Positions 10,266 to 60,739 of a stretch of 64,000 nt of DNA are shown here, piece by piece. The position numbers and the translations under genes were made by a program. The DNA is from Alphaproteobacteria bacterium (GTDB lineage: Bacteria; Pseudomonadota; Alphaproteobacteria; GCA-2731375): assembly GCA_021776235.1 (NCBI GenBank), contig JAJFGG010000051.1, forward strand, positions 25,618 through 89,617, written 5' to 3'. The notes beneath the pieces were generated by a model. The model was not told the origin of the DNA, ran no database searches, and was given only the letters and a program-made list of their open reading frames with translations. The stretch's first letter is position 1; every line of letters begins with the position of its first letter.

Positions 10266-10589
10266 ATGTGTGCTTTGTGCGGCGTCCTCGGCGGGCGGGG
10301 CCACTGGACCGAAAGCGCGGCGTCGCCCGAGGCCTTCGCCTCCCGTGCCGAGGCGCACACCCGGGCGCGGGAGCGGCAGACCCGCACCCGGCTGGTGAAC
10401 AGGGTGTTGGGCCATTACGGCCTGCGTCTGGGCGATTGGTCGGGCGGCGGCCATGTGCTGCGCGGCCCCACCGGGCGCACAGCCCTGGTCAATAACCTGT
10501 CCGAGATGTGGGCCGCGGCGGACGATTTGAGCCGCCGGGCCTGCGATCCTCTTGACGAGGATTTGCTGCGCCATCTGAAGGGGGCCTAA
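10266..10589 (+). CDS. small hypothetical protein with N-terminal CxxC (MCALCGVLGG..HW)
   Basis: 107-aa ORF, 3 nt upstream of the CobW-like gene. Protein-like composition. No family recognised. Confidence 0.45.
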   Translation: MCALCGVLGGRGHWTESAASPEAFASRAEAHTRARERQTRTRLVNRVLGHYGLRLGDWSGGGHVLRGPTGRTALVNNLSEMWAAADDLSRRACDPLDEDLLRHLKGA

Positions 10590-10592
10590 GGA

Positions 10593-11642
10593 TTGGGCGA
10601 ATTTTCCGAACAGACGCCGATCAACATCATTACCGGCTTTCTGGGCAGCGGCAAGACGACCCTGTTGAAGGGTCTTTTGGCGGCGCCGGATTTGTCGGAC
10701 ACGGCTGTCCTGATCAACGAGTTCGGGGCCGTTGGTCTGGATCACGAACTGGTGCAGAACGTCACCGAAACTACCTTGTTGCTGGACAACGGCTGTCTGT
10801 GTTGCGCCATTCGCGGCGATCTGCAAGGCGCCCTGCGCGATTTACTCTCGCAACGGCAGGCGGGCCTGGTGCCCTATTTTCGCCGTGTGGTGATCGAGAC
10901 CTCGGGTTTGGCCGACCCCGCGCCCATCGCATACACGTTGCTGGCGGAGCCGGTGCTGCAGCACCATTTTCGCCTGGGCGGCATCATCACCACCGTGGAT
11001 GCGGTCAACGGTGGGGAACAGCTGCAACGCTTCCCCGAATCCGTAAAACAGGCGGCCGTGGCGGACCGCCTGATCATGACCAAGACCGATCTGGCCGGGC
11101 CCGAACAGATCGCGGCCCTGTACGCCAATTTGCGCCGCCTGAACAAATCCGCCCCGATCGTGGAGGTGGCTGACGGCGATATTCAGCCCGCCACGCTTTT
11201 GACCGATGACATGTATGACGCGGCGGGCCGGGATCGGGAGATCAGCCAATGGCTGGCGCCGTCATCCGGGCCGGATATGGCTCAGGATGCACTGATCCAC
11301 GAGCATGCCGACCACATTCACTCCTTTGCCCTGACCTACGACAGCCCCCTGGACTGGACCGCATTCGGCATCTGGATGACCATGCTATTGCACCACCACG
11401 GCGATAACGTGTTGCGTATCAAGGGATTACTGAACGTGGCCGGGGTGCCGACGCCGGTTCTGATCAACGGCGTGCAGCATATTGTCCATCCCCCCGCCCA
11501 CCTGCCGGCCTGGCCCAGCGCCTCGCGCCAGTCACGCATCATCTTCATTGTCAGGGATATGGAGCAAGGCAAAATAGAGGCCTCGCTAGCCGCCTTCAAC
11601 AAACTCGCCAACCCGGACGCGGTGGCAGGCCGCGCGGCTTAG
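10593..11642 (+). CDS. CobW/G3E-family GTPase (putative metallochaperone)
   Basis: P-loop GFLGSGKTTLL, metal-binding CLCCAIRGDL, ETSGLADP and MTKTDL. Apparent TTG start. Confidence 0.85.
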   Translation: MGEFSEQTPINIITGFLGSGKTTLLKGLLAAPDLSDTAVLINEFGAVGLDHELVQNVTETTLLLDNGCLCCAIRGDLQGALRDLLSQRQAGLVPYFRRVVIETSGLADPAPIAYTLLAEPVLQHHFRLGGIITTVDAVNGGEQLQRFPESVKQAAVADRLIMTKTDLAGPEQIAALYANLRRLNKSAPIVEVADGDIQPATLLTDDMYDAAGRDREISQWLAPSSGPDMAQDALIHEHADHIHSFALTYDSPLDWTAFGIWMTMLLHHHGDNVLRIKGLLNVAGVPTPVLINGVQHIVHPPAHLPAWPSASRQSRIIFIVRDMEQGKIEASLAAFNKLANPDAVAGRAA

Positions 11643-11654
11643 AGCTTGTCGGGG

Positions 11655-12182
11655 CTAGTCGCCGAGCGCCGAGCTTGAACGCCGTGGGCGGCCGCGTCCG
11701 GTGCTCCAGCCATCCCGGAAGGCGCGCACCAGATGGTGCAGCAGATAGAACAATATGGCGAGAATGACCATCAGGACGATGGCCAGCAGGTGCCCGCCGA
11801 ATTCTGAACCGATAATAGTGCCACGATTGACCAGATGCTCGCCCAACATGGCCACGGCCTGCAGGGTGCCGCCGGCGCAAAAGATCACCGCGATCAAAAT
11901 CGCCACCTGCAAGCTGTCAAAGACCAGCACTTCAACATTCAAGGCGCCACTATCACGGCCAAACTGGCTGCGAAAACTCTGCCAATGGGCGATCACATAG
12001 CCGACGGTGCCAACCAAGGAGGCGAACCAGAAGACCACGTTGGAGAAATGCACCTGGGGAATGTGGGCCACCAGATAGCTTTCGAACGGCTTATAAAAAT
12101 ACAGGAAAATCAGCAGAATGATGATGGCGATCAAGCTGATCCAGAACTTCGCCTGCCGCCCGGTTGTTGTCTGTTCCGCCAT
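11655..12182 (-). CDS. small multi-pass membrane protein, paralog of 34803-35276
   Basis: About 4 predicted TM segments. Shares LIFLYFY(K/Q)PFE, AGG(T/A)LQAV and the basic tail with the second copy. The ORF extends to 12212. Confidence 0.6.
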   Translation of the reverse strand: MAEQTTTGRQAKFWISLIAIIILLIFLYFYKPFESYLVAHIPQVHFSNVVFWFASLVGTVGYVIAHWQSFRSQFGRDSGALNVEVLVFDSLQVAILIAVIFCAGGTLQAVAMLGEHLVNRGTIIGSEFGGHLLAIVLMVILAILFYLLHHLVRAFRDGWSTGRGRPRRSSSALGD

Positions 12183-16866: not shown

Positions 16867-19683
16867 ATGTATGAAGTTGGAATTGCGTTGTTCATTACGG
16901 CCATCGTCGTCCTCGCGATCCTGTATATTATTTCCATCTGGATTTATAAGCGGGCACCGTCGAACATGTGCTTTATCCGCACGGGCTTTCGCGGCACGAA
17001 GGTCTGTCTGGGCCAGGGCGCCCTGGTATTGCCGGTATTTCATGAAGTGTCCTGGGTATCGCTTGAAACCCTGAAATTGATTATTTCCCGGTCGCGGGAT
17101 CAGGCAATCCTGACGTCCGACAATATTCGTATCGACGCAGTGGTCGAGCTGTACACCCACGTTGGCCATACGGAAGACGCGGTGCTGATCGCCTCACGAA
17201 GTTTGGGCGAGAAGACCTTCGATTCCGACAAGGTGCGCAACCTGTTGGAAGCCAAGGTGGTTGGCGCCCTGCGCAGCTATGCCGCGACCAAGACCCTGAA
17301 AGAGCTGCATCAGAACCGTGACGCCTTTGCCTCCGACATCCGCAACGGCGTCACCGAAAGCTTTACCTCCAACGGGCTGGTCCTGGAAGAAGTCTCCATC
17401 GTCACCTTGGAACAGGCCGGCAAGGAATTCTTCCGCACCGACAACGTGTTTGACTCCGAGGGCCTGAAGGTGATCACCGAGATCACGTCCGATGCCCGGC
17501 GCAAAGTGCACGACACGGAAAAACGCACCACGGTGTCGATCCGCCAAAAAGATCTGGATACCCAGTTGGAATTGTTGGAGATCGAACGGCACGAGGCCGT
17601 GGCCCGGGCCAATCAGGACAAGGAAATCGCCAACGAGCAGGCCAAGCAACTTGGCGAAAAACAGATCTATGTGCTGGATCAGCGCATGGGGGTTGAGCAA
17701 AAGGAAATCGACAACGAAAAAACCCTGGAAATCATCCGTACTGAACGGGATCTGGCCGTAACGGAAGAGGGCAAACGCCGGGAAATTGCTGAAATTCAAA
17801 AAGAACTGGCCTTGGAGAAAGAGCGCCGCGACCGGGAGATCGATTTAATTGCCAAGGCGCGGGAAGAAGAACTGGCCAACATCAGCCGCAACCTGACCCT
17901 GGAAAAAGCCGAACGGGACCGCCAGATCGAGCTGGTGGGTAAGGCCAAGGACGCCGAGCTGGCGGAAATTGAACGTGTCCTGGCGCGGGAACGGGCGGAA
18001 AAACAACGGGAAATCGAACTTTCCCAGAAGGAAAGAGAGCGGCAACAGTCGGAGATTGCCCGCATTACCGCCGTTATGGCAGACGAAGAGACGGCCCGTG
18101 ACGCCCGCCACAACGCGGCGGAAGAAGCCGCCCTGTCGGTACGAAAACGGGCCCTGGAAACCCGGCTGGAAATGTTGGAGCTGGACAAACAGGACAGCTT
18201 CGCCGCCGCCAAGCAGGAACAGGAAGTGGCCAATGAAAAGGCCCGTGTCCTGAGCGAGCAACAGCGTTTCATCCTGGATCGCCGCTGGGAGGTGGAGCAG
18301 GAAGAAATCGCCAAGGCCGAAGCACTGGAAAAAGCCCGCCTGCAAAAAGATACGGCCGTTATCGAAGAGAGCAAGTCGAAGCAAACAGCGGAGATCGAGC
18401 GTTCCTTGTCGCGTGAATCGGCGGAACGAGACCGCGAGATTGTCTTGATCGGCAAGGCCGAGGAGTTGGAACGGGCGGAGATCCGCCGCACCCTGGCCCG
18501 GGAACAGGAAGAACGGGACCGCGAAATAGCCTTGGTTGAGAAAGCCAAGGAGCTGGAACAGGTGGAGGTCCAGAAACATCTGGCGATCGAGTTGGAGCAA
18601 CGCCAGCGGGACATTGCCTTGATCGAGAAGGACAAGGAACGCGAAGCCGCCGACATCCGCCGCTTCCTGGCCCGCGAGACAGAGGAACGCAACCGCGAGA
18701 TCGCCCTGGTGGATAAGACCAAGGAATTGGAGGCCGCGGAAGTGCAGCGCCTGACCACTACGGCGGAAAAGGAAAGCGCCCAACACCGGGTTGAATCGGT
18801 CCGCCTGTTGGCGGATGCCGAGCGCGCCAAGGAGGTCGAACAGATCGATGCGGAAATGCTGGCGGAAATCCGGCGCATCGACGAGGAAAGCAAAGCGGCC
18901 ATTACCCGCATGCATATGATTACTCAATCCGAAGCGCGAAAACTGTCGGCGGAACAGGAATCGGATGCCACCATGATCCGCGCCCGTGCTTCGGCCGAGG
19001 CCCAGAAAATTTCGGCCGATGGCATAGAGCGCGAGGCCGGCGCCAAGGGCCGGGCGGAAATGGAGATCGAAGCCCTGCGCGTCAGCAATACTCAACGTAT
19101 GTTGGAGGCGGAGGCCAGCGGCATGGAAGCCAAGGCCGACGCCCTGAAAAAATACAACGACGCCGCTACTTTTCTTGAATTGGCAAAACTGTCAATCGAG
19201 GCCGACCGGGATATCCACATCGATCAGGCCCGCGCCATGGGCAATGCCCTCGAAGGGGCGCAGATCCGCATGTACGGCGGCGGCGACGGCACGGTGGACA
19301 CCATTCGCGGTCTGTTCACCCAGGGCTTTGGCGTGGGCGAGGTGCTGGAAGGATTTGCCCAATCCATGCCCGACGGCCTGCGGCAGAAATTCACCGCCAA
19401 CGGCCTGCGCGGCCTATTCGGACGCCCTTATGGCCAGGGCGGTCTGCGCGAGGCGGCGGAGCATCTGTCGGCCCTGGTCGATAGCACGTTGAACTCGAAG
19501 AAAGCCCGCGGCGCGAATTTCCCGGAGGCCCTTGAGAAACTTGTTGAAGCAGCCGGCGACGATCAAACCATGAGCCAGACCCTTGCCATGTTGAAGGAAT
19601 TGAACAGCCAGGGCAGGTTCGATGACGTACCCTTTGACAACGTCTGGAACATCATACAGGCGATGGCCAAGACGGCCGATTAG
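16867..19683 (+). CDS. flotillin/SPFH (band 7) family protein, unusually long (938 aa)
   Basis: N-terminal TM segment. SPFH-like region (aa ~30-200). Long E/R/K/A coiled coil. Flotillin-type C-terminus (...AKADALKKYNDAATFLELAKLSIEA...). Confidence 0.8.
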   Translation: MYEVGIALFITAIVVLAILYIISIWIYKRAPSNMCFIRTGFRGTKVCLGQGALVLPVFHEVSWVSLETLKLIISRSRDQAILTSDNIRIDAVVELYTHVGHTEDAVLIASRSLGEKTFDSDKVRNLLEAKVVGALRSYAATKTLKELHQNRDAFASDIRNGVTESFTSNGLVLEEVSIVTLEQAGKEFFRTDNVFDSEGLKVITEITSDARRKVHDTEKRTTVSIRQKDLDTQLELLEIERHEAVARANQDKEIANEQAKQLGEKQIYVLDQRMGVEQKEIDNEKTLEIIRTERDLAVTEEGKRREIAEIQKELALEKERRDREIDLIAKAREEELANISRNLTLEKAERDRQIELVGKAKDAELAEIERVLARERAEKQREIELSQKERERQQSEIARITAVMADEETARDARHNAAEEAALSVRKRALETRLEMLELDKQDSFAAAKQEQEVANEKARVLSEQQRFILDRRWEVEQEEIAKAEALEKARLQKDTAVIEESKSKQTAEIERSLSRESAERDREIVLIGKAEELERAEIRRTLAREQEERDREIALVEKAKELEQVEVQKHLAIELEQRQRDIALIEKDKEREAADIRRFLARETEERNREIALVDKTKELEAAEVQRLTTTAEKESAQHRVESVRLLADAERAKEVEQIDAEMLAEIRRIDEESKAAITRMHMITQSEARKLSAEQESDATMIRARASAEAQKISADGIEREAGAKGRAEMEIEALRVSNTQRMLEAEASGMEAKADALKKYNDAATFLELAKLSIEADRDIHIDQARAMGNALEGAQIRMYGGGDGTVDTIRGLFTQGFGVGEVLEGFAQSMPDGLRQKFTANGLRGLFGRPYGQGGLREAAEHLSALVDSTLNSKKARGANFPEALEKLVEAAGDDQTMSQTLAMLKELNSQGRFDDVPFDNVWNIIQAMAKTAD
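17791..18738 (+). repeat. in-frame 87-nt (29-aa) tandem repeats inside the flotillin gene, in two blocks
   Basis: Units resembling EI.R.LA.E.AERDREI.L..KA.E.E.A: three at ~17791-18051 and four at ~18391-18738. The blocks are separated by a duplicated spacer module. Confidence 0.6.
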
Positions 19684-35367: not shown

Positions 35368-36210
35368 TCAGTTGTTTTCCGGCAAGGCGCCCTTAATCAG
35401 ACGGCCAAAGATGACCATCTCCGGGCTGGTCCGCCGGTACATCTCCAGGGCGGCCAGCACAGCGGGAATTTCGTCGGGCACCGGCAGCCATTGCGCCGGC
35501 GAATCCGCCTGGGCCGGCAAGCTGGGAAACAGGTCCGCGACCGCGGCGTCGATGCCGGCCAGCAAGGCCGCCCGAGCCGCCTCGGTTTCAGGTGCTGTTG
35601 CCAACGGCGCCAGCCGTCCGCCCAGATGCGCCATAAATGCCGGCCACCGGGCCAGTATAAGGTAGAGCCCCGGCACGAACGGGATATCATCGACATTGGT
35701 GCCAAGCCGCAGCAACACCGCCTGGAGATCCTGGTCCAGCCCCGCGAAATCGGCCAGGGCGGGCAGCGTCGGCAACGACGGAGGCGGCTGCCAGATCGCA
35801 GTGGGCAATTCCTGATCAACGGCGCCGGCGGGCCGCTCGCCCTTCAACAAACGCCGCAGCAGGCCGGAAAAGACCAGATTGACCGGCGCCACCCGAATAA
35901 ATCCGTCGCACACATTGGCAATGACCCGCTGGTCAGCGGCATCGACGCCAAGCCGGCGCAGGGCTGAGGTAGACAGCGGCGGCAGGGTTGGCAGATCCAG
36001 ACCGGCGGCCACGCGCCAGCCGGCGGTCTGCGCCCGCCCGGACACGAATGCAGACCCCAGGGCCGCCCAGCTCCATTGCAGCCAGCCCGGGCGGGTGGCC
36101 AGATGGCGCTGCAGAGAGGATACGTAGGGCACGGCCCAAAGGCGGCGGATCTCGCCATAGATTTCGCCGATCCGGCCGTCAGCCTCGGCTTCAGGTAGTT
36201 CAGCCAGCAT
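35368..36210 (-). CDS. DehI-like (group I halocarboxylic acid dehalogenase family) protein
   Basis: N-terminal GRIGEIYGEIRRLWAVPYVSSLQRHLATRPGWLQWSW parallels my recollection of DehI (...YEDIRLTLRVPWVAFGCRVLATFPGYLPLAW). Later segments also run in parallel. The function is not implied. Confidence 0.5.
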   Translation of the reverse strand: MLAELPEAEADGRIGEIYGEIRRLWAVPYVSSLQRHLATRPGWLQWSWAALGSAFVSGRAQTAGWRVAAGLDLPTLPPLSTSALRRLGVDAADQRVIANVCDGFIRVAPVNLVFSGLLRRLLKGERPAGAVDQELPTAIWQPPPSLPTLPALADFAGLDQDLQAVLLRLGTNVDDIPFVPGLYLILARWPAFMAHLGGRLAPLATAPETEAARAALLAGIDAAVADLFPSLPAQADSPAQWLPVPDEIPAVLAALEMYRRTSPEMVIFGRLIKGALPENN

Positions 36211-40612: not shown

Positions 40613-41431
40613 ATGGTAAACTCCATCAACACCAACACCGGTGCCGCGACCGCGTTGCGGCAGTTGTCGGACACCCGCGGCAACCTGGACAAAAATCAAA
40701 GCCACATTTCTACTGGCAGGAAAATCAATTCGCCCAAGGACGATGCCGCCACCCTGGCCATCGCACAGCAGTTGATGGCCACCTTTTCCGGCACGGAAGC
40801 CGTGCGCGACGGCCTGAGCCGGGCCAGCGCCAGCCTGGATGTTGCCGTGGCCGCGGGCCAATCGACCTCGGACCTGCTTGTCGAGATGAAGGGCCTGGCA
40901 GTACAGGCCAACCAGGAGGGGCTGGACCAAACCTCGCGCGACGCCCTGAATTCCGCCTTCGGCGCCCTGCAGGCGCAGATCGCAACCATCAACGACAGCG
41001 CCGATTTCGCGGGCACCAACCTGATTGCCGCGGGCGCGCCCAACCAGAACATCCTCAGTGACGACAACGGCGGCCGCATCAGCGTCAAGGCCCAGGATTT
41101 ATCCACCGGCGGTCTCGGTCTCACCGGGCTTTCCCTGGATACTTTCGGCAACGCCACCGGCGCGTTGAGCGCCCTGGATGCGGCGATCGCCGATGCTTCG
41201 GCGAAACTGGCGGATCTCGGCAGTTCGGCCAAGCGTATCGAAACCCACGACGATCTGCTTGGCATACAAAACGACACCTTGCGCGCCGGCATCGGCGATC
41301 TGGTGGACGCTGACATGGCGGCGGAAAGTGCCGCGCTGCAGTCGAACCAGATCAAGGAATCCCTGGGCATGATCAGCCTCAGCGTCGCCAACGCCGCCCC
41401 GTCCCGGATGCTCGCGCTGTTTGGCGGTTAA
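40613..41431 (+). CDS. flagellin (short, 272 aa)
   Basis: N-terminus MVNSINTNTGAATALRQL...ISTGRKINSPKDDAA and C-terminus ...SNQIKESLGMISLSVANAAPSRMLALFGG. AAGGAAG SD. Confidence 0.85.
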   Translation: MVNSINTNTGAATALRQLSDTRGNLDKNQSHISTGRKINSPKDDAATLAIAQQLMATFSGTEAVRDGLSRASASLDVAVAAGQSTSDLLVEMKGLAVQANQEGLDQTSRDALNSAFGALQAQIATINDSADFAGTNLIAAGAPNQNILSDDNGGRISVKAQDLSTGGLGLTGLSLDTFGNATGALSALDAAIADASAKLADLGSSAKRIETHDDLLGIQNDTLRAGIGDLVDADMAAESAALQSNQIKESLGMISLSVANAAPSRMLALFGG

Positions 41432-41452
41432 TTCCAACGAGCGCTGGTTTGA

Positions 41453-41719
41453 CCTAGACCACGTTTACAGAACATAGACCGGTTTGACCGCACTTCCCAG
41501 CTTCGTGGCTAGGCGAAGGTTGCCGCGCGTAGTGGGACTACGGGCAAAACCTTCAACGACGCCACGGCGCTGGGAAGCGCGGCCTTCGGTGGCGCGTGGA
41601 GGCCATTCGTTTGCGTTGTTTTGCTTGCCCGTAGTCCCACTACGCGCCGCGCAAAACGCCTACCCGAATGACCTCCACACGCCATCAAACGGATCTATGT
41701 TCTGGAAACGTGGTCTAGG
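41453..41719. repeat. 267-bp nested-palindromic (MITE-like or structured-RNA) element E1
   Basis: 35-nt terminal inverted repeats 41453-41487 / 41685-41719 (32/35). Two internal hairpins (41488-41582, 41590-41684). Their 26-nt loops are reverse complements of each other (24/26). Confidence 0.75.
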
Positions 41720-41775
41720 CGCCAAATGGCGCGTGGCCCTCTGGCGGCAATTCGGCCTAGTATCGTGAAGCGATA

Positions 41776-42044
41776 CTAGTGTCCTGGGTCAGTAGTACGT
41801 CGCGTTTAGGACGGCCATACAGGTCCCTCGGCGAGGAGCGTGGTCCGCCGTGATGTGGTGCATCATTAGGATCGCGCGACGACGTCCGAGGGGCCTGTAT
41901 GGCCGCCAACTTGGTCGTTTTTCCGGGTCTCCGGATGGCGTCGGCGCCGCGTGTCGAAGTGCCGCCTCGCCGGCGCGGCGCCTCCTACCCGGAGGCCCGG
42001 AAAAGCGATCCTAAACATGACGTACTTCTGACCCAGGACACTAG
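41776..42044. repeat. 269-bp nested-palindromic element E2, same architecture as E1
   Basis: 37-nt terminal inverted repeats 41776-41812 / 42008-42044 (33/37). Hairpin stems 41813-41831 / 41886-41904 (18/19) and 41923-41934 / 41989-42000 (11/12). Confidence 0.75.
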
Positions 42045-42053
42045 GAGCGAAGC

Positions 42054-42725
42054 ATGGCAGAGATCAGTTATCCGGCGGACTGGCGCGATATCCCGCCCGA
42101 ACGTTTTGCCCGCATGCTGCTGACGCCGGCACAATATACCGCCATGCGGGCGGAACGCCTGGCCCGGGAAGAGGCCGCGCCGTCGGTCGGCCAGTTGGCG
42201 CCAAATTTTACCCTGGAACGGCTGTCGGCAGAGGGCAAGCGAACCGGCGAGATGGTCAGCCTGTCGGACAACTTCGCAGGCGGCCAGAGCCGGCCGGTCG
42301 GCCTGATCTTCGGCTCCTACACCTGACCGCCGTTTCGTATTCAGGCCGTGCGCCTGAACGAGATTGCGGCCCAATTCAAGGATCGGGTAGATTTCTATTG
42401 CGTCTATATTCAGGAAGCGCATCCGGACGACGGTTGGCAGGTGCAGCAGAATTTGGACCAGGAGATCATTCTGAACGCGCCCGGCAACATCGACGAACGC
42501 GCGGCCATCGCCGAGGTTTGCGCCCTGCGCCTGAACCTGGCCATGCCCATGTTGCTGGATGACATGACCGATCAGGCCGACAGATTGTATAACGCGCTGC
42601 CGGAGCGTTTGTACCTGATCGATGAAGCCGGCATTGTGCGTTTTAAGACCGTGGCGGGCTCCCGGGGTTTCGAGCCCGAGGCCTGGGCCGCGGCCATCGC
42701 CGGTCTGGTGGGGCCGCCAGGTTAA
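42054..42725 (+). CDS. iodothyronine-deiodinase-family thioredoxin-fold protein, probable selenoprotein (Sec at codon 91, TGA 42324-42326)
   Basis: Two same-frame ORFs are joined by a single TGA. The joined product reads LIFGSYT-U-PPF...VYIQEAHPDDGW...LYNALPERLYLIDEAG, matching deiodinase motifs. AGGAG SD at 42043-42047. Confidence 0.8.
42340..42358 (+). promoter_or_regulatory. candidate bacterial SECIS hairpin
   Basis: TTCAGGC-CGTGC-GCCTGAA is a perfect 7-bp stem starting 13 nt after the TGA. The apical loop contains GU. Confidence 0.55.
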
Positions 42726-42746
42726 ACGGAATCCCGCCGGCCCAGC

Positions 42747-43619
42747 ATGGAAAAACAATCGCTGCCGCGGGGCATCATCTACGTTATCCTATCGGCCATG
42801 GTTCTGGTGCCCATGGTGTCGGCCTCGATCAAGCATCTGGGGCAAAATTATGGGGTGGTGGAGATTGTCTGGGTCCGGGCCCTGGGACAGACCTTGTGGA
42901 TGACGGTCTTACTGGTTCCCCGTCATGGCTGGCGCATTTTGCGGCCTTACCGGCTCGGGGGCCAGTTGCTTCGCTCGGGCGTCCTCTTTATCTCGACCGT
43001 ATGCTTTGTTTTCGGCATCAAGGCCGTGCCGTTGGTGACGGCCCATGTCATCGGTTTCATCGCGCCGATGATTGTCGTCGTCCTGTCCGCCGTATTCCTG
43101 GCCGAACGGATCAACGCCGCCCGATGGATCGCCGTGATCGGGGGTTTCCTTGGCGTTCTGATCGTCTTGCAGCCAGGTCTGGAAACGGCCCTGCCCCTGG
43201 CCTCGCTCTGGTTGCTGGGCGGGGCGGTATGTTGGGCGGTGGTGCAAATTCTCAGCCGCCAGATGGCCGGCCATGATCGATCGGAAACCACCGCGATTTA
43301 CACCTATGCGGTCGCCCTGGCCGTGATGACGCCCCTGGTCCCCGGCAGCCTTGATATTTCTCATTCTCCCGGCACGGGCGATTGGCTGGCATTTATTCTG
43401 ATCGGTCTGGTCGGCGGCATGCGCCATTATTGCAGCATCAAGGCCTATGCCCTGGCGCCGGCTTCCATCATCGCCCCATTCAACTATACCGAAATACTGG
43501 GTGCGACACTGGTCGGGGCAATTGTGTTCGGCAGCACACCCGATGGCGCGACCTGGCTGGGCGCCATGGTGATCATCGCCGCCGGACTTTATCTGGTCTA
43601 TTGCGAGCGCCGCGGCTAG
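42747..43619 (+). CDS. DMT-superfamily (EamA-like) transporter
   Basis: 290 aa, about 10 TM segments, with two EamA-like halves. Confidence 0.85.
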   Translation: MEKQSLPRGIIYVILSAMVLVPMVSASIKHLGQNYGVVEIVWVRALGQTLWMTVLLVPRHGWRILRPYRLGGQLLRSGVLFISTVCFVFGIKAVPLVTAHVIGFIAPMIVVVLSAVFLAERINAARWIAVIGGFLGVLIVLQPGLETALPLASLWLLGGAVCWAVVQILSRQMAGHDRSETTAIYTYAVALAVMTPLVPGSLDISHSPGTGDWLAFILIGLVGGMRHYCSIKAYALAPASIIAPFNYTEILGATLVGAIVFGSTPDGATWLGAMVIIAAGLYLVYCERRG

Positions 43620-43695
43620 AGAAGACCCGCCCGCCCGCTGATATGGATCAATTCGCCGATGGCGCCCGGCCCCTATACTGCCGGTCATTGATCCC

Positions 43696-44667
43696 ATGGT
43701 CGAGAGACGGACAACGATGACGGAACGCGCGCGATTATCAGAGCCAACGGATTTTGGCGAGGAGCAGTATCCCCACGCCCTGGTCAATGTCACCAATGTC
43801 TGCAACCTGGATTGCCGCCATTGTTTCGTCTTTCGCGCCGATAACCCGAACGCGCCGCGGGACAAGATGAACGACGCCACCATGTTGCACCAGTTGGCAG
43901 AATTGCGCGACAAGCACGGCATCCGTTCCATGCTGTTCATGGGCGGAGAGCCGATGATCCGCAAGGATCTGGTGCTGCAGGCGGTACAGCTATTTCCTGA
44001 AAGCGCCATTGTCACCAATGGCACCTATGGCATTCCATCCGTGCCAGGCCATCTGGTTACGGTCTCGTTGGACGGGCCGGCGGAATTGAACGATCCCATC
44101 AGGGGCGACGGCGTCTTTGCCAAGGTCCGCGAGGCGGTGTTCGCCCGCGACCCGGCCGACGGCACCACGGTAATGCTGCAAATGGCGGTGACCCGCGAGA
44201 ACGCGCCCGGTCTGGAAGACTTCATGGCCGAAGTCGCCGATTGGCCCATCGCGGGGGTGGCATTCAGTTTTTACGTACCTGTGAAAGATGACAGCACGGG
44301 TCTGGCCTGGCCGGACCTGAAGGAGCGGGACAAAGTCCTGGACCGGGTCATCGCCCTGAAACGGCAGTATCCCCATATGATCAAGTCAAACATCCCGACC
44401 CTGGAAATGATGAAGTCGGACGTCGCCATCCAATCAACCGGTGAAAATGGCGAACATTGCATCCTGCGCCGCGACACCCTGCCCCTGTACATGGGCGAGG
44501 GCGGCCAGTTCGAAAAACCATTCTGCTGCTATGGCAACGATGTCGACTGCAGCCGCTGTGGTGCCTATGCGGTGTTCAACCGGGCCTATTTGGCCGCCCA
44601 GGGCCGAGGCGACGCCGCGCGTTATGGCCGCGACGGCGCGGCGAAACTGGCGGCCCTGGCGGAATAG
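43696..44667 (+). CDS. radical SAM protein with Cys-rich C-terminal (auxiliary-cluster/SPASM-like) region
   Basis: CNLDCRHC (CX3CX2C) encoded at 43801-43824. FMGGEPM glycine-rich motif. C-terminal C...CC....DCSRCG cluster. Confidence 0.8.
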   Translation: MVERRTTMTERARLSEPTDFGEEQYPHALVNVTNVCNLDCRHCFVFRADNPNAPRDKMNDATMLHQLAELRDKHGIRSMLFMGGEPMIRKDLVLQAVQLFPESAIVTNGTYGIPSVPGHLVTVSLDGPAELNDPIRGDGVFAKVREAVFARDPADGTTVMLQMAVTRENAPGLEDFMAEVADWPIAGVAFSFYVPVKDDSTGLAWPDLKERDKVLDRVIALKRQYPHMIKSNIPTLEMMKSDVAIQSTGENGEHCILRRDTLPLYMGEGGQFEKPFCCYGNDVDCSRCGAYAVFNRAYLAAQGRGDAARYGRDGAAKLAALAE

Positions 44668-44694
44668 GCAGCAACGCAAACGGCGGGCGGGGGA

Positions 44695-45453
44695 TCAGCC
44701 GCGCCCAACAAACGGCATCTTGGTGGCCATCACCGTGAGAAACTGTACATTGGCGTCAGGCGGCAGGCTGGCCATGTAGAGCACCGCGCGGGAGACATTA
44801 TCCACGTCCATCAAGGGTTCCGGCCTGGTCGAGCCATCCGCCTGGGGGACGCCGTCTTTCATGCGCGCCGCCATGGGCGTGAAGGCATTGCCGATATCCA
44901 GCTGGCCGCAGGCAATATCGTATTTGCGGCCGTCCAGAGAGGTCGATTTGGTCAACCCGGTGACCGCGTGTTTGGTTGAGGTATAGGGTGCCGAATTGGG
45001 CCTGGGTGCATGGGCGGAAATCGAGCCGTTGTTGATAATGCGCCCGCCCATGGGATCCTGCGCCTGCATCACCTTGAAGGCCTCCTGGGTGCACAGAAAA
45101 ACACCGGTCAGGTTGACATTGACCACACCGCTCCATTGTTCAAAGGTCAACTCTTCCAGGGGCACGGGCGGCGCACCCGCGCCGGCGTTGTTGAACAACA
45201 GATCCAGGCGGCCAAACGCCTGGACCGTGGCCGCAAACAGCGCACTGACCGAGGCCGGATCGCTGACATCGGTGGGTACCGCCAGGGCACGGTCGCCGTC
45301 GGCGCCCGCCTCGGCAATGGACTCCTGCAGGGCATCCTGCCGCCGCCCGGCCAGGGCCACGGAATAACCTTCGCCCAACAACGCCACGGCGGCGCCGCGG
45401 CCAATGCCGGACCCAGCCCCCGTCACGATCGCAACCTTGCCCTGTCCACTCAT
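44695..45453 (-). CDS. SDR-family oxidoreductase
   Basis: [20 protein letters not shown] and Y..TK catalytic motifs. The ATG at 45453 is preferred; the ORF extends to 45513. Confidence 0.85.
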
Positions 45454-60193: not shown

Positions 60194-60739
60194 ATGGCAC
60201 GTATCCCTTATCTTGACCCGGAGGACCTGGCCGAGGACGACCGCGATCTTTTGAAGCGGACCATCAATCTGCACCGCGCCCTGGTCAATAGCCCCGGCGC
60301 CGCACGCAATTTCGGCCATCTGGGCAGCTACATCAGGTTTGGCTCCAAACTGGATCCGCGGTTGCGGGAACTGGCCATTTTGCAGGTCGGCTATCTGAGC
60401 AAGAGCGAGTACGAGTACAGCCACCACATCAAAATCGGCCGCGATTTCGGGGTCACCGACGATGATATCCGGGCCATGATTACCGAAACCGAGGGCCGGA
60501 ACAGCGGTCTACCCCGCCTGGACCGGGCTGTCCTGAGTGCGGCGCGGGAAATGACAGAGAGCGGCCGGATTTCCGATCTTACTTTCGCCAAACTTGAAGA
60601 GGCCCTGAACCCGGAACTGCTGGTCGATCTGACCATCGTCATCGCCTTTTACAATGCGGTGGTCCGTGTCCTGGGCACCCTGGAGATCGACGTCGAGGAC
60701 AGCTATGCGCCCTTTTTGGAGGAATTTCCGTTGCCGTAA
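60194..60739 (+). CDS. carboxymuconolactone decarboxylase (AhpD-like) family protein
   Basis: 181 aa. The pattern LRELAILQVGYLSKSEYEYSHHIKIG is typical of the CMD family (non-Cys variant). Confidence 0.7.
   Translation: MARIPYLDPEDLAEDDRDLLKRTINLHRALVNSPGAARNFGHLGSYIRFGSKLDPRLRELAILQVGYLSKSEYEYSHHIKIGRDFGVTDDDIRAMITETEGRNSGLPRLDRAVLSAAREMTESGRISDLTFAKLEEALNPELLVDLTIVIAFYNAVVRVLGTLEIDVEDSYAPFLEEFPLP

Follow-up and report, generated by a model that had tools for sequence, protein, structure and literature searches.

The window analyzed here, a stretch of 64,000 nucleotides (64 kb) from an alphaproteobacterial assembly (GCA_021776235.1, contig JAJFGG010000051.1, positions 25,618 to 89,617), contains a deiodinase-like gene (42054–42725, forward strand) that is interrupted by an in-frame TGA codon. 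Provided that the genome has the machinery for selenocysteine (Sec), it is very probable that this is a selenoprotein gene with Sec at the UGA. With equally high confidence, its product is regarded as a bacterial 'deiodinase-like' selenoprotein, namely a soluble oxidoreductase of 223 residues with the thioredoxin fold. Such proteins (Pfam00837), in Sec and cysteine (Cys) forms and with bacterial Sec insertion sequence (SECIS) elements, were described from the Sargasso Sea metagenome by Zhang, Fomenko and Gladyshev in 2005 (PMC1088965). The common features are the PF00837 domain, an in-frame UGA, the existence of Cys homologues, a bacterial-type SECIS hairpin directly past the UGA with G in its small apical loop, and an origin in marine uncultured bacteria. 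At the sequence level, the window gene agrees with the 2005 family on every criterion and differs from it in nothing essential; it is a further, mis-annotated member of that family, genuine and not new. The features of the gene are as follows.

42043–42047, forward strand: Shine-Dalgarno-like AGGAG, 6 nt before the ATG at 42054 (reading of the sequence).
42054–42725, forward strand: coding sequence for the deiodinase-like selenoprotein, with 223 residues and a TAA stop (translation; PF00837 match over residues 23–208; tblastn matches to relatives over residues 1–222 of the read-through product).
42324–42326, forward strand: predicted Sec UGA codon, residue 91, in the motif FGSYT-U-PPF (TGA at 64 of 74 homologous sites; aligned with the Sec column of Dio3 and Dio2).
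42340–42358, forward strand: putative SECIS core, a 7-bp stem UUCAGGC/GCCUGAA with the 5-nt loop CGUGC (published bacterial SECIS criteria; covariation in relatives).
42327–42369, forward strand: extended helix with a lower stem (42332–42337/42359–42364) and an outer stem (42327–42330/42366–42369), from the minimum-free-energy (MFE) fold (RNAfold).
42519–42521, forward strand: TGC codon of the proposed resolving Cys156 (Sec+65; Cys at +65 in 72 of 74 Sec/Cys sites).

The first-pass annotation of this DNA had described two open reading frames (ORFs) of the same frame, 42054–42326 and 42348–42725, parted only by the TGA at 42324–42326. These coordinates were confirmed, and the two ORFs (90 and 125 aa, the second listed from a GTG at 42348) belong to a single frame of 223 codons including the UGA, which has no other in-frame stop before the final TAA at 42723–42725. 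The GTG is the first start codon past the TGA, and the seven intervening codons (42327–42347) are all sense codons. In comparison with those closest relatives that align without indels, substitutions were found to be biased towards third codon positions in both halves of the gene. In addition, a Logan assembly contig of run SRR15505512 (SRR15505512_91412, locus L081, 2756 nt) is identical to window positions 42015–44770 at every base, TGA included; as this contig is independent, an error of the window's own assembly is disfavoured.

Among the protein-database matches listed, every one above approximately 60% identity is a fragment of 122–133 aa corresponding to the C-terminal 55% of the query, with the neighbouring ORF of 86–90 aa called separately, just as had been expected of standard gene callers. 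Full-length proteins among the matches listed occur only at 42–57% identity, and at the UGA column these have Cys in most cases, 'W' in three and Ala in four. The DNA was therefore compared in 80 relatives from species-representative genomes, all of them metagenome-assembled genomes (MAGs). The closest relatives (75–85% identity) are marine Alphaproteobacteria/Rhodospirillaceae, and further ones are labelled Myxococcota, Thermoanaerobaculia, Terriglobia, Chloroflexota, Gammaproteobacteria, Planctomycetota, Gaiellaceae, Fimbriimonadia and Eisenbacteria. The codon that follows FGS(Y/F)T is TGA at 64 of the 74 recognisable sites (window counted) and TGC or TGT at the other 10, so that the column is indeed a Sec/Cys one, the point that the alignment proposed in the first-pass annotation was meant to check. 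Neither TAA nor TAG was found at this column in any of the 74 homologous sites, and the terminal stops of these same genes draw on all three stop codons. In the six codons upstream and the four downstream of the 64 TGA sites, the first two positions are practically invariant and the third is free (CCN CCN TTY CGN). Since this flanking variation is synonymous only, translation passes through the TGA and does not restart at the downstream GTG.

These data bear directly on the explanation that the TGA is a true stop, the locus then being a pseudogene, a sequencing error or two genes (90 aa, and 125 aa re-initiated at GTG 42348). Such an explanation would account for the split annotation that gene callers give everywhere, for the GTG seven codons past the TGA, and for the lack of visible Sec machinery in the 64-kb window, but it is extremely improbable. 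The TGA is kept at 64 sites over many phyla and is never swapped for TAA or TAG, the codons between it and the GTG (PPFR and following) are conserved as amino acids with synonymous variation and so are translated, and the independent assembly reproduces the sequence. Moreover, the break lies within both the Pfam domain and the predicted thioredoxin fold, and coincides exactly with the catalytic motif. The suspicion that the two halves might be separate or decayed in close homologues is likewise contradicted by the synonymous-only variation across the TGA.

Several relatives were observed to carry more than one copy of the gene: locus L011 has two UGA-containing copies in tandem (sites 470 and 1150), MAG SI074_bin97 has deiodinase-like copies on two contigs (L003 and L015), and contig CBDFKK010000008.1 harbors a Cys copy (L052) with a second relative (L059) 29 kb away. 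The four Ala proteins (P0027, P0033, P0049 and P0116) form a subgroup with the motif FGSYT-A-TPF, and in P0027 this Ala is genuinely encoded, by GCG (locus L090, 1216–1887). The Ala variants may be catalytically dead or may use other chemistry.

The hairpin noticed in the first-pass annotation 13 nt past the TGA is present, and consists of TTCAGGC (42340–42346), the loop CGTGC (42347–42351) and GCCTGAA (42352–42358), with a perfect stem and a TGA-to-loop spacing of 20 nt. Its apical loop has G at the second position, followed by U, and the upper stem-loop alone has a folding energy of −9.1 kcal/mol. According to the published model, bacterial SECIS elements have a loop of 3–9 nt, an upper stem of 4–16 bp, a G at loop position 1 or 2 (mostly with G or U after it), a UGA-to-loop distance of 16–37 nt, and an MFE of −7.5 kcal/mol or lower (PMC13188914). 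The window hairpin agrees with all four published criteria. RNAfold gave −29.7 kcal/mol for a 73-nt region (z = −3.55 against dinucleotide shuffles), and the UGA with the following 57 nt folds at −24.5 kcal/mol, compared to −12.3 ± 3.6 kcal/mol in 2000 synonymous-codon resamplings, a fraction of 0.001 of which were as stable.

In the relatives, a hairpin with G in the loop is near-universal at a similar distance (16–20 nt downstream) in the TGA genes, but not in the Cys genes. The mean MFE of the UGA plus 57 nt is −15.5 kcal/mol in the TGA genes versus −11.0 kcal/mol in the Cys genes, and the mean longest stem is 6.1 versus 4.4 bp. A bacterial SECIS scan that scored the uninterrupted upper stem only, and is hence strict, was passed by 29 of the 64 TGA genes and by none of the 10 Cys genes, most of the other TGA genes just missing the energy threshold.

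Covariation was examined on codon-anchored, ungapped alignments (A3 and A4; UGA to +45 nt, 64 genes). The first register, with 45 sequences including that of the window, has stem columns 17–23/29–35 and the loop CGUGC or CGGGC. In its 17-pair structure, 72% of the cells are paired, compared to 23–38% when the partner is slid by 1–3 columns, and compensatory changes are found at pairs 18–34, 19–33 and 22–30 (alignment A3); the covariation score of 0.152 (0.098 in shuffles) was reached by 0 of 500 shuffles. In the second register, formed by 19 sequences of other phyla, the hairpin lies 3 nt nearer to the UGA and has the loop AGUUG; 82.5% of the cells are paired versus 38–58% when slid, double changes occur at four of the six pairs, and the covariation score of 0.629 (0.179 in shuffles) was again reached by 0 of 500 shuffles. 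The two registers thus stand exactly one codon apart in one protein family, and the split tracks phylogenetic groups. Beyond the core, the outer stem is paired in the closest relatives only and the lower stem in most relatives, and the conservation of the lower stem may be owed to the conserved peptide. Taken together, the SECIS-like nature ascribed to the hairpin is upheld by its agreement with the published model and by its conservation and covariation, which are confined to genes with the TGA codon. The element resembles the E. coli fdhF-type and consensus bacterial SECIS in being a hairpin inside the coding sequence and 3' of the UGA, in having a loop G followed by U, and in its spacing and stability. 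It differs from the fdhF type in the lack of primary-sequence similarity, and the bacterial deiodinase-like family differs in having two registers 3 nt apart (CGUGC/CGGGC and AGUUG).

A number of results weigh against Sec decoding. The 7-bp upper stem alone arises in 13.5% of synonymous resamplings of the same peptide; on a single sequence, the evidence for the hairpin is good and not overwhelming, and the strength of the case comes from the comparison of homologues. No Rfam SECIS family matched the whole window at gathering thresholds or positions 42250–42450 at E ≤ 10, a null result which says little because bacterial SECIS elements are family-specific. In the 64-kb window, tblastn with SelA, SelB and SelD of E. 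coli gave no homologue and ARAGORN detected not a single tRNA gene, hence no selC, which is in line with the absence of sel genes reported in the first-pass annotation. No sel gene was found within 3–10 kb of the gene in relatives either, be it by tblastn of all the fetched loci or in the ±10 kb around the gene on a 539-kb and a 2.26-Mb contig. The capacity of the genome to make Sec is therefore assumed: it is supposed because a gene interrupted by UGA and yet maintained by purifying selection in 64 lineages would make no sense without it.

The unseen Sec machinery in the window and in the flanks of relatives would also fit a UGA that is read as something other than Sec, namely as Trp or Gly by a reassigned code, as Cys by a Sec-like tRNA, or by hairpin-aided near-cognate suppression, and some gene callers did give homologues W at the Sec site. 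Such decoding is highly improbable. TGA terminates 20 of the 45 long ORFs of the window as well as many of the deiodinase-like genes, and the genetic code is therefore standard; the homologues hold Cys at this column, and no TGG codon for Trp was found there among the homologous sites. Furthermore, a hairpin with a small G-containing loop at this spacing is typical of SelB-dependent decoding, and the same criteria had led to the published family being classed with the selenoproteins (PMC1088965). As for the 'W' proteins (P0019, P0028 and P0102), the DNA of P0019 (locus L089, 139–879) has TGA at the 'W' position, so a UGA = Trp code was applied by the gene caller to a standard-code contig, which produced a full-length but wrong protein.

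For profile searches of the read-through product, Cys was placed at the UGA position. Pfam T4_deiodinase (PF00837) matched residues 23–208, spanning the TGA, with 89.2 bits (cut-off 27; E-value, 3.4 × 10−25). A weaker match to AhpC/TSA (PF00578; 30.7 bits, cut-off 26) was found, and Redoxin remained under its cut-off. The NCBIfam model NF038285 ('deiodinase_rel', 347 positions) gave 168.9 bits against a cut-off of 250 and was matched at profile positions 169–339 only; the window protein is not a member of this equivalog, the N-terminal part of about 168 positions being absent. In a sequence search of the PDB, only mouse Dio3 (4TR3; E-value, 1.3 × 10−16) and Dio2 (9H48; E-value, 1.2 × 10−14) matched. 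The motif FGSYT-U-PPF aligns to FGSCT-C-PPF and FGSAT-C-PPF of the Dio3 and Dio2 PDB sequences, and QEAHPDDGW to EEAHPSDGW, which puts the TGA precisely in the column of Sec in Dio3/Dio2, where the first-pass annotation had placed it, and of Cys in bacterial homologues.

A structure model was made of the Cys homologue P0031 (45% identity), standing in for the window protein (AlphaFold; pLDDT 91.8, pTM 0.88). The best matches of this model in a fold search were Dio2 (TM-score 0.78) and Dio3 (TM-score 0.71), followed by ResA/TlpA-type oxidoreductases and peroxiredoxins; Pfam, the PDB sequence search and the fold search thus agree with the original assignment to the deiodinase family. In the model, a beta strand precedes the catalytic residue and the first long helix begins after it; this is the classical nucleophile position of the thioredoxin fold and the place of the catalytic Sec in animal deiodinases. 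No hydrophobic N-terminal segment was found, as the highest 19-residue Kyte-Doolittle mean (1.57, from residue 150) lies within the domain; the protein is predicted to be soluble, unlike animal deiodinases.

The alignment shows Ser88, Thr90, Tyr118, Glu121 and His123 without variation across the bacterial family, and most members also have Glu184. These six residues match those of the hydrogen-bond and proton-relay network around Sec in DIO1 and DIO3 (PMC9141512). In other respects the active site departs from that of the animal enzymes: the proximal Cys position (−2) is occupied by Tyr89, the relay His (DIO1 His174/Dio3 His219) aligns to the invariant Pro143, in a part of the HMMER alignment that is less certain, and an Ala stands opposite Dio3 Arg275. 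In the structure paper on Dio3, Arg275 reportedly binds the substrate.

With animal DIO1–3 (4TR3, 9H48), the window protein shares the thioredoxin-fold core, the motifs FGSxTUPPF and EAHPxDGW, the Ser, Thr, Tyr and Glu residues, and the position of Sec at the N-terminus of helix 1. On the other hand, the animal enzymes are membrane-anchored homodimers (PMC9141512), whereas the window protein is without an N-terminal anchor; their SECIS is located in the 3'-UTR, whereas that of the window gene, a hairpin of bacterial type, lies within the coding sequence; and their distal Cys is found at +69 to +76 (PMC9141512), in contrast to +65, a different aligned column, in the bacterial protein. [quoted passage not shown]

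A Cys at Sec+65 (Cys156 in the window protein) is found in 72 of the 74 Sec/Cys sites, and at +66 in the remaining two; its conservation is a new observation of this analysis. Reviews of the family give its motif as UxxC (PMC9312934, PMC13188914), whereas the window protein and all of the 64 Sec sites have U-P-P-F/Y, with no Cys at +3 and the conserved Cys at +65. In all four Ala variants the position of Cys156 is Phe or Leu, and in two of them a Cys follows one helical turn further on. The conservation of Cys156 and its loss in the Ala variants suggest a Sec/Cys redox pair. In the P0031 model, the equivalent of Cys156 is in the helix that leads to a near-invariant, cis-Pro-type Pro165 by the active site.

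Under the standard bacterial pathway, the mRNA would fold during translation into the hairpin at 42340–42358, 20 nt past the UGA (42324–42326), and this hairpin would recruit SelB with Sec-tRNA(Sec), so that the UGA would be read as Sec and not as a stop. The selenolate of Sec91 may then attack an electrophile, either an organohalide's halogen, which is what deiodinases do, or a peroxide's oxygen, which is what peroxiredoxins do. The resulting Se-X or Se-OH would be resolved by Cys156 to an intramolecular selenenylsulfide, similar to atypical 2-Cys peroxiredoxins and to what has been proposed for deiodinases, and a cellular thiol reductant (thioredoxin, glutaredoxin or glutathione) would regenerate the enzyme. 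Some points tell against this scheme. Cys156 falls about eight residues before the Dio3 Cys239 column in the HMMER alignment, inside a helix; literature searches found no biochemical or experimental study of a bacterial member; and clustering of the flanking ORFs of 81 loci revealed no conserved neighbour pointing to a substrate or reductant.

The selenoprotein could also be an ordinary peroxiredoxin or thiol-disulfide oxidoreductase, its likeness to deiodinases reflecting shared thioredoxin-fold ancestry only. This has a real, albeit lesser, chance of being correct. Atypical 2-Cys peroxiredoxins and TlpA/ResA proteins have the same fold, the nucleophile at the start of helix 1 and, as the bacterial protein probably does, an intramolecular resolving Cys; the AhpC/TSA match exceeds its cut-off, and ResA/TlpA proteins and peroxiredoxins come close behind Dio2/Dio3 in the fold search. 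Dio3 itself has been described as peroxiredoxin-like (PMC9141512), and the discoverers of the family, which they classed as a selenoprotein family, suggested a generic redox function (PMC1088965). Against this, the deiodinase profile scores 89 bits versus 31, the Ser, Thr, Tyr, Glu and His residues of the deiodinase network are invariant in the bacterial family, and the protein has no CxxC. The peroxiredoxin active-site motif is PxxxTxxC; in the window protein, position −7 is Leu84 (a Pro is found at −10) and position −3 is Ser88, so the proline of the motif is missing. The nucleophile is Sec in most members, and the Sec:Cys ratio, 64:10 here and 22:21 in the GOS survey, is not what is usually seen in peroxiredoxin-type families, a Prx-like family having 68:2608 (PMC2398784). 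Owing to the better deiodinase fit, the missing proline and the predominance of Sec over Cys forms, we lean, on sequence grounds, towards deiodinase-type abstraction of an electrophile (halonium).

A wider reading, which is speculative and in our judgement rather unlikely, is that the bacterial deiodinase-like selenoproteins are selenium-dependent reductive dehalogenases of marine or soil aryl halides such as halophenols and halotyrosines, which would remove iodine or bromine by the halogen-bond chemistry of deiodinases and be recycled through the Sec91–Cys156 pair. It is compatible with the data because the network residues are kept, the reliance on Sec is heavy (64:10), and the deiodinase match prevails over the peroxiredoxin one. 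If true, it would mean a cofactor-free, non-corrinoid and non-flavin route of dehalogenation in more than eight phyla, and an evolutionary source of animal thyroid-hormone deiodination.

To our knowledge, the bacterial deiodinase-like family is alone among prokaryotic proteins in being related to the enzymes of thyroid-hormone activation and inactivation. Its function has been open for about twenty years, with reviews of 2022 and 2026 still listing it without an assigned function (PMC9312934, PMC13188914), and its selenium dependence is unusually high in comparison with other thioredoxin-fold families. The comparative data leave existing knowledge of the family unchanged, and offer handles for biochemistry: the Cys at +65, the joint loss of Sec and Cys in the Ala variants, the absent proximal Cys and thyronine-binding Arg, and the two SECIS registers. 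In practical terms, public databases list the window gene and at least 63 further copies from other species either as a pair of hypothetical ORFs or as one truncated fragment, and the split copies should be merged with a Sec translation exception.

Downstream of the selenoprotein gene, an EamA-family transporter gene (42747–43619, forward strand) starts 22 nt past the stop codon and is followed by a radical SAM gene (43696–44667, forward strand); the three genes may be co-transcribed. A promoter/terminator scan of positions 41400–44800 gave no signal over the shuffled background. The same arrangement recurs in loci L002, L003, L004, L009 and L012 and not beyond the close clade, and the longer gene order of UPRT, flagellin, selenoprotein, EamA, radical SAM and short-chain dehydrogenase (SDR) genes is kept in the closest clade only. 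The sole recurrent flanking family, SDR, is present at 19 of the 81 loci, which is not clearly over expectation for so large a family. The flagellin gene (40613–41431, forward strand; Flagellin_N and Flagellin_C domains), which adjoins the deiodinase-like gene in the closest relatives too, is preceded at a distance of 17 nt by a c-di-GMP-I riboswitch (RF01051; 40506–40596, forward strand; 59.5 bits; E-value, 4 × 10−9). About 6 kb upstream of the selenoprotein gene, a 280-aa ORF (35368–36210, reverse strand) has a borderline match to DehI, a halocarboxylic acid dehalogenase (28.8 bits versus a cut-off of 28.9; E-value, 1.4 × 10−6); the match is too weak to build on, and is mentioned since both genes would concern halogenated compounds.

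Pfam annotation of about 50 ORFs of the window revealed ordinary metabolic, transport and motility genes, none of them selenium-related. No second selenoprotein candidate was found in the window: among 117 in-frame TGA junctions joining open stretches, that of the deiodinase-like gene alone is coding-like on both sides and has a redox motif. A U-x-x-C candidate at 17845–19413 (reverse strand) was rejected as spurious, as it is antisense to a real gene (16867–19683, forward strand) whose 938-aa protein has an SPFH/Band 7 domain at the N-terminus; long spurious ORFs occur on the antisense strand of this gene. The CMD/AhpD-like family has Sec-containing forms elsewhere; in the window, its 181-aa representative (60194–60739, forward strand) is uninterrupted and directly follows an SDR gene that ends in a same-frame TGA. 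Finally, on the 2.26-Mb contig of a relative (L087), the creatinase/Peptidase_M24 gene beside the deiodinase-like gene is called as two ORFs (10401–10886 and 10936–11763, reverse strand), and this split may represent a frameshift, a pseudogene or another recoding event.

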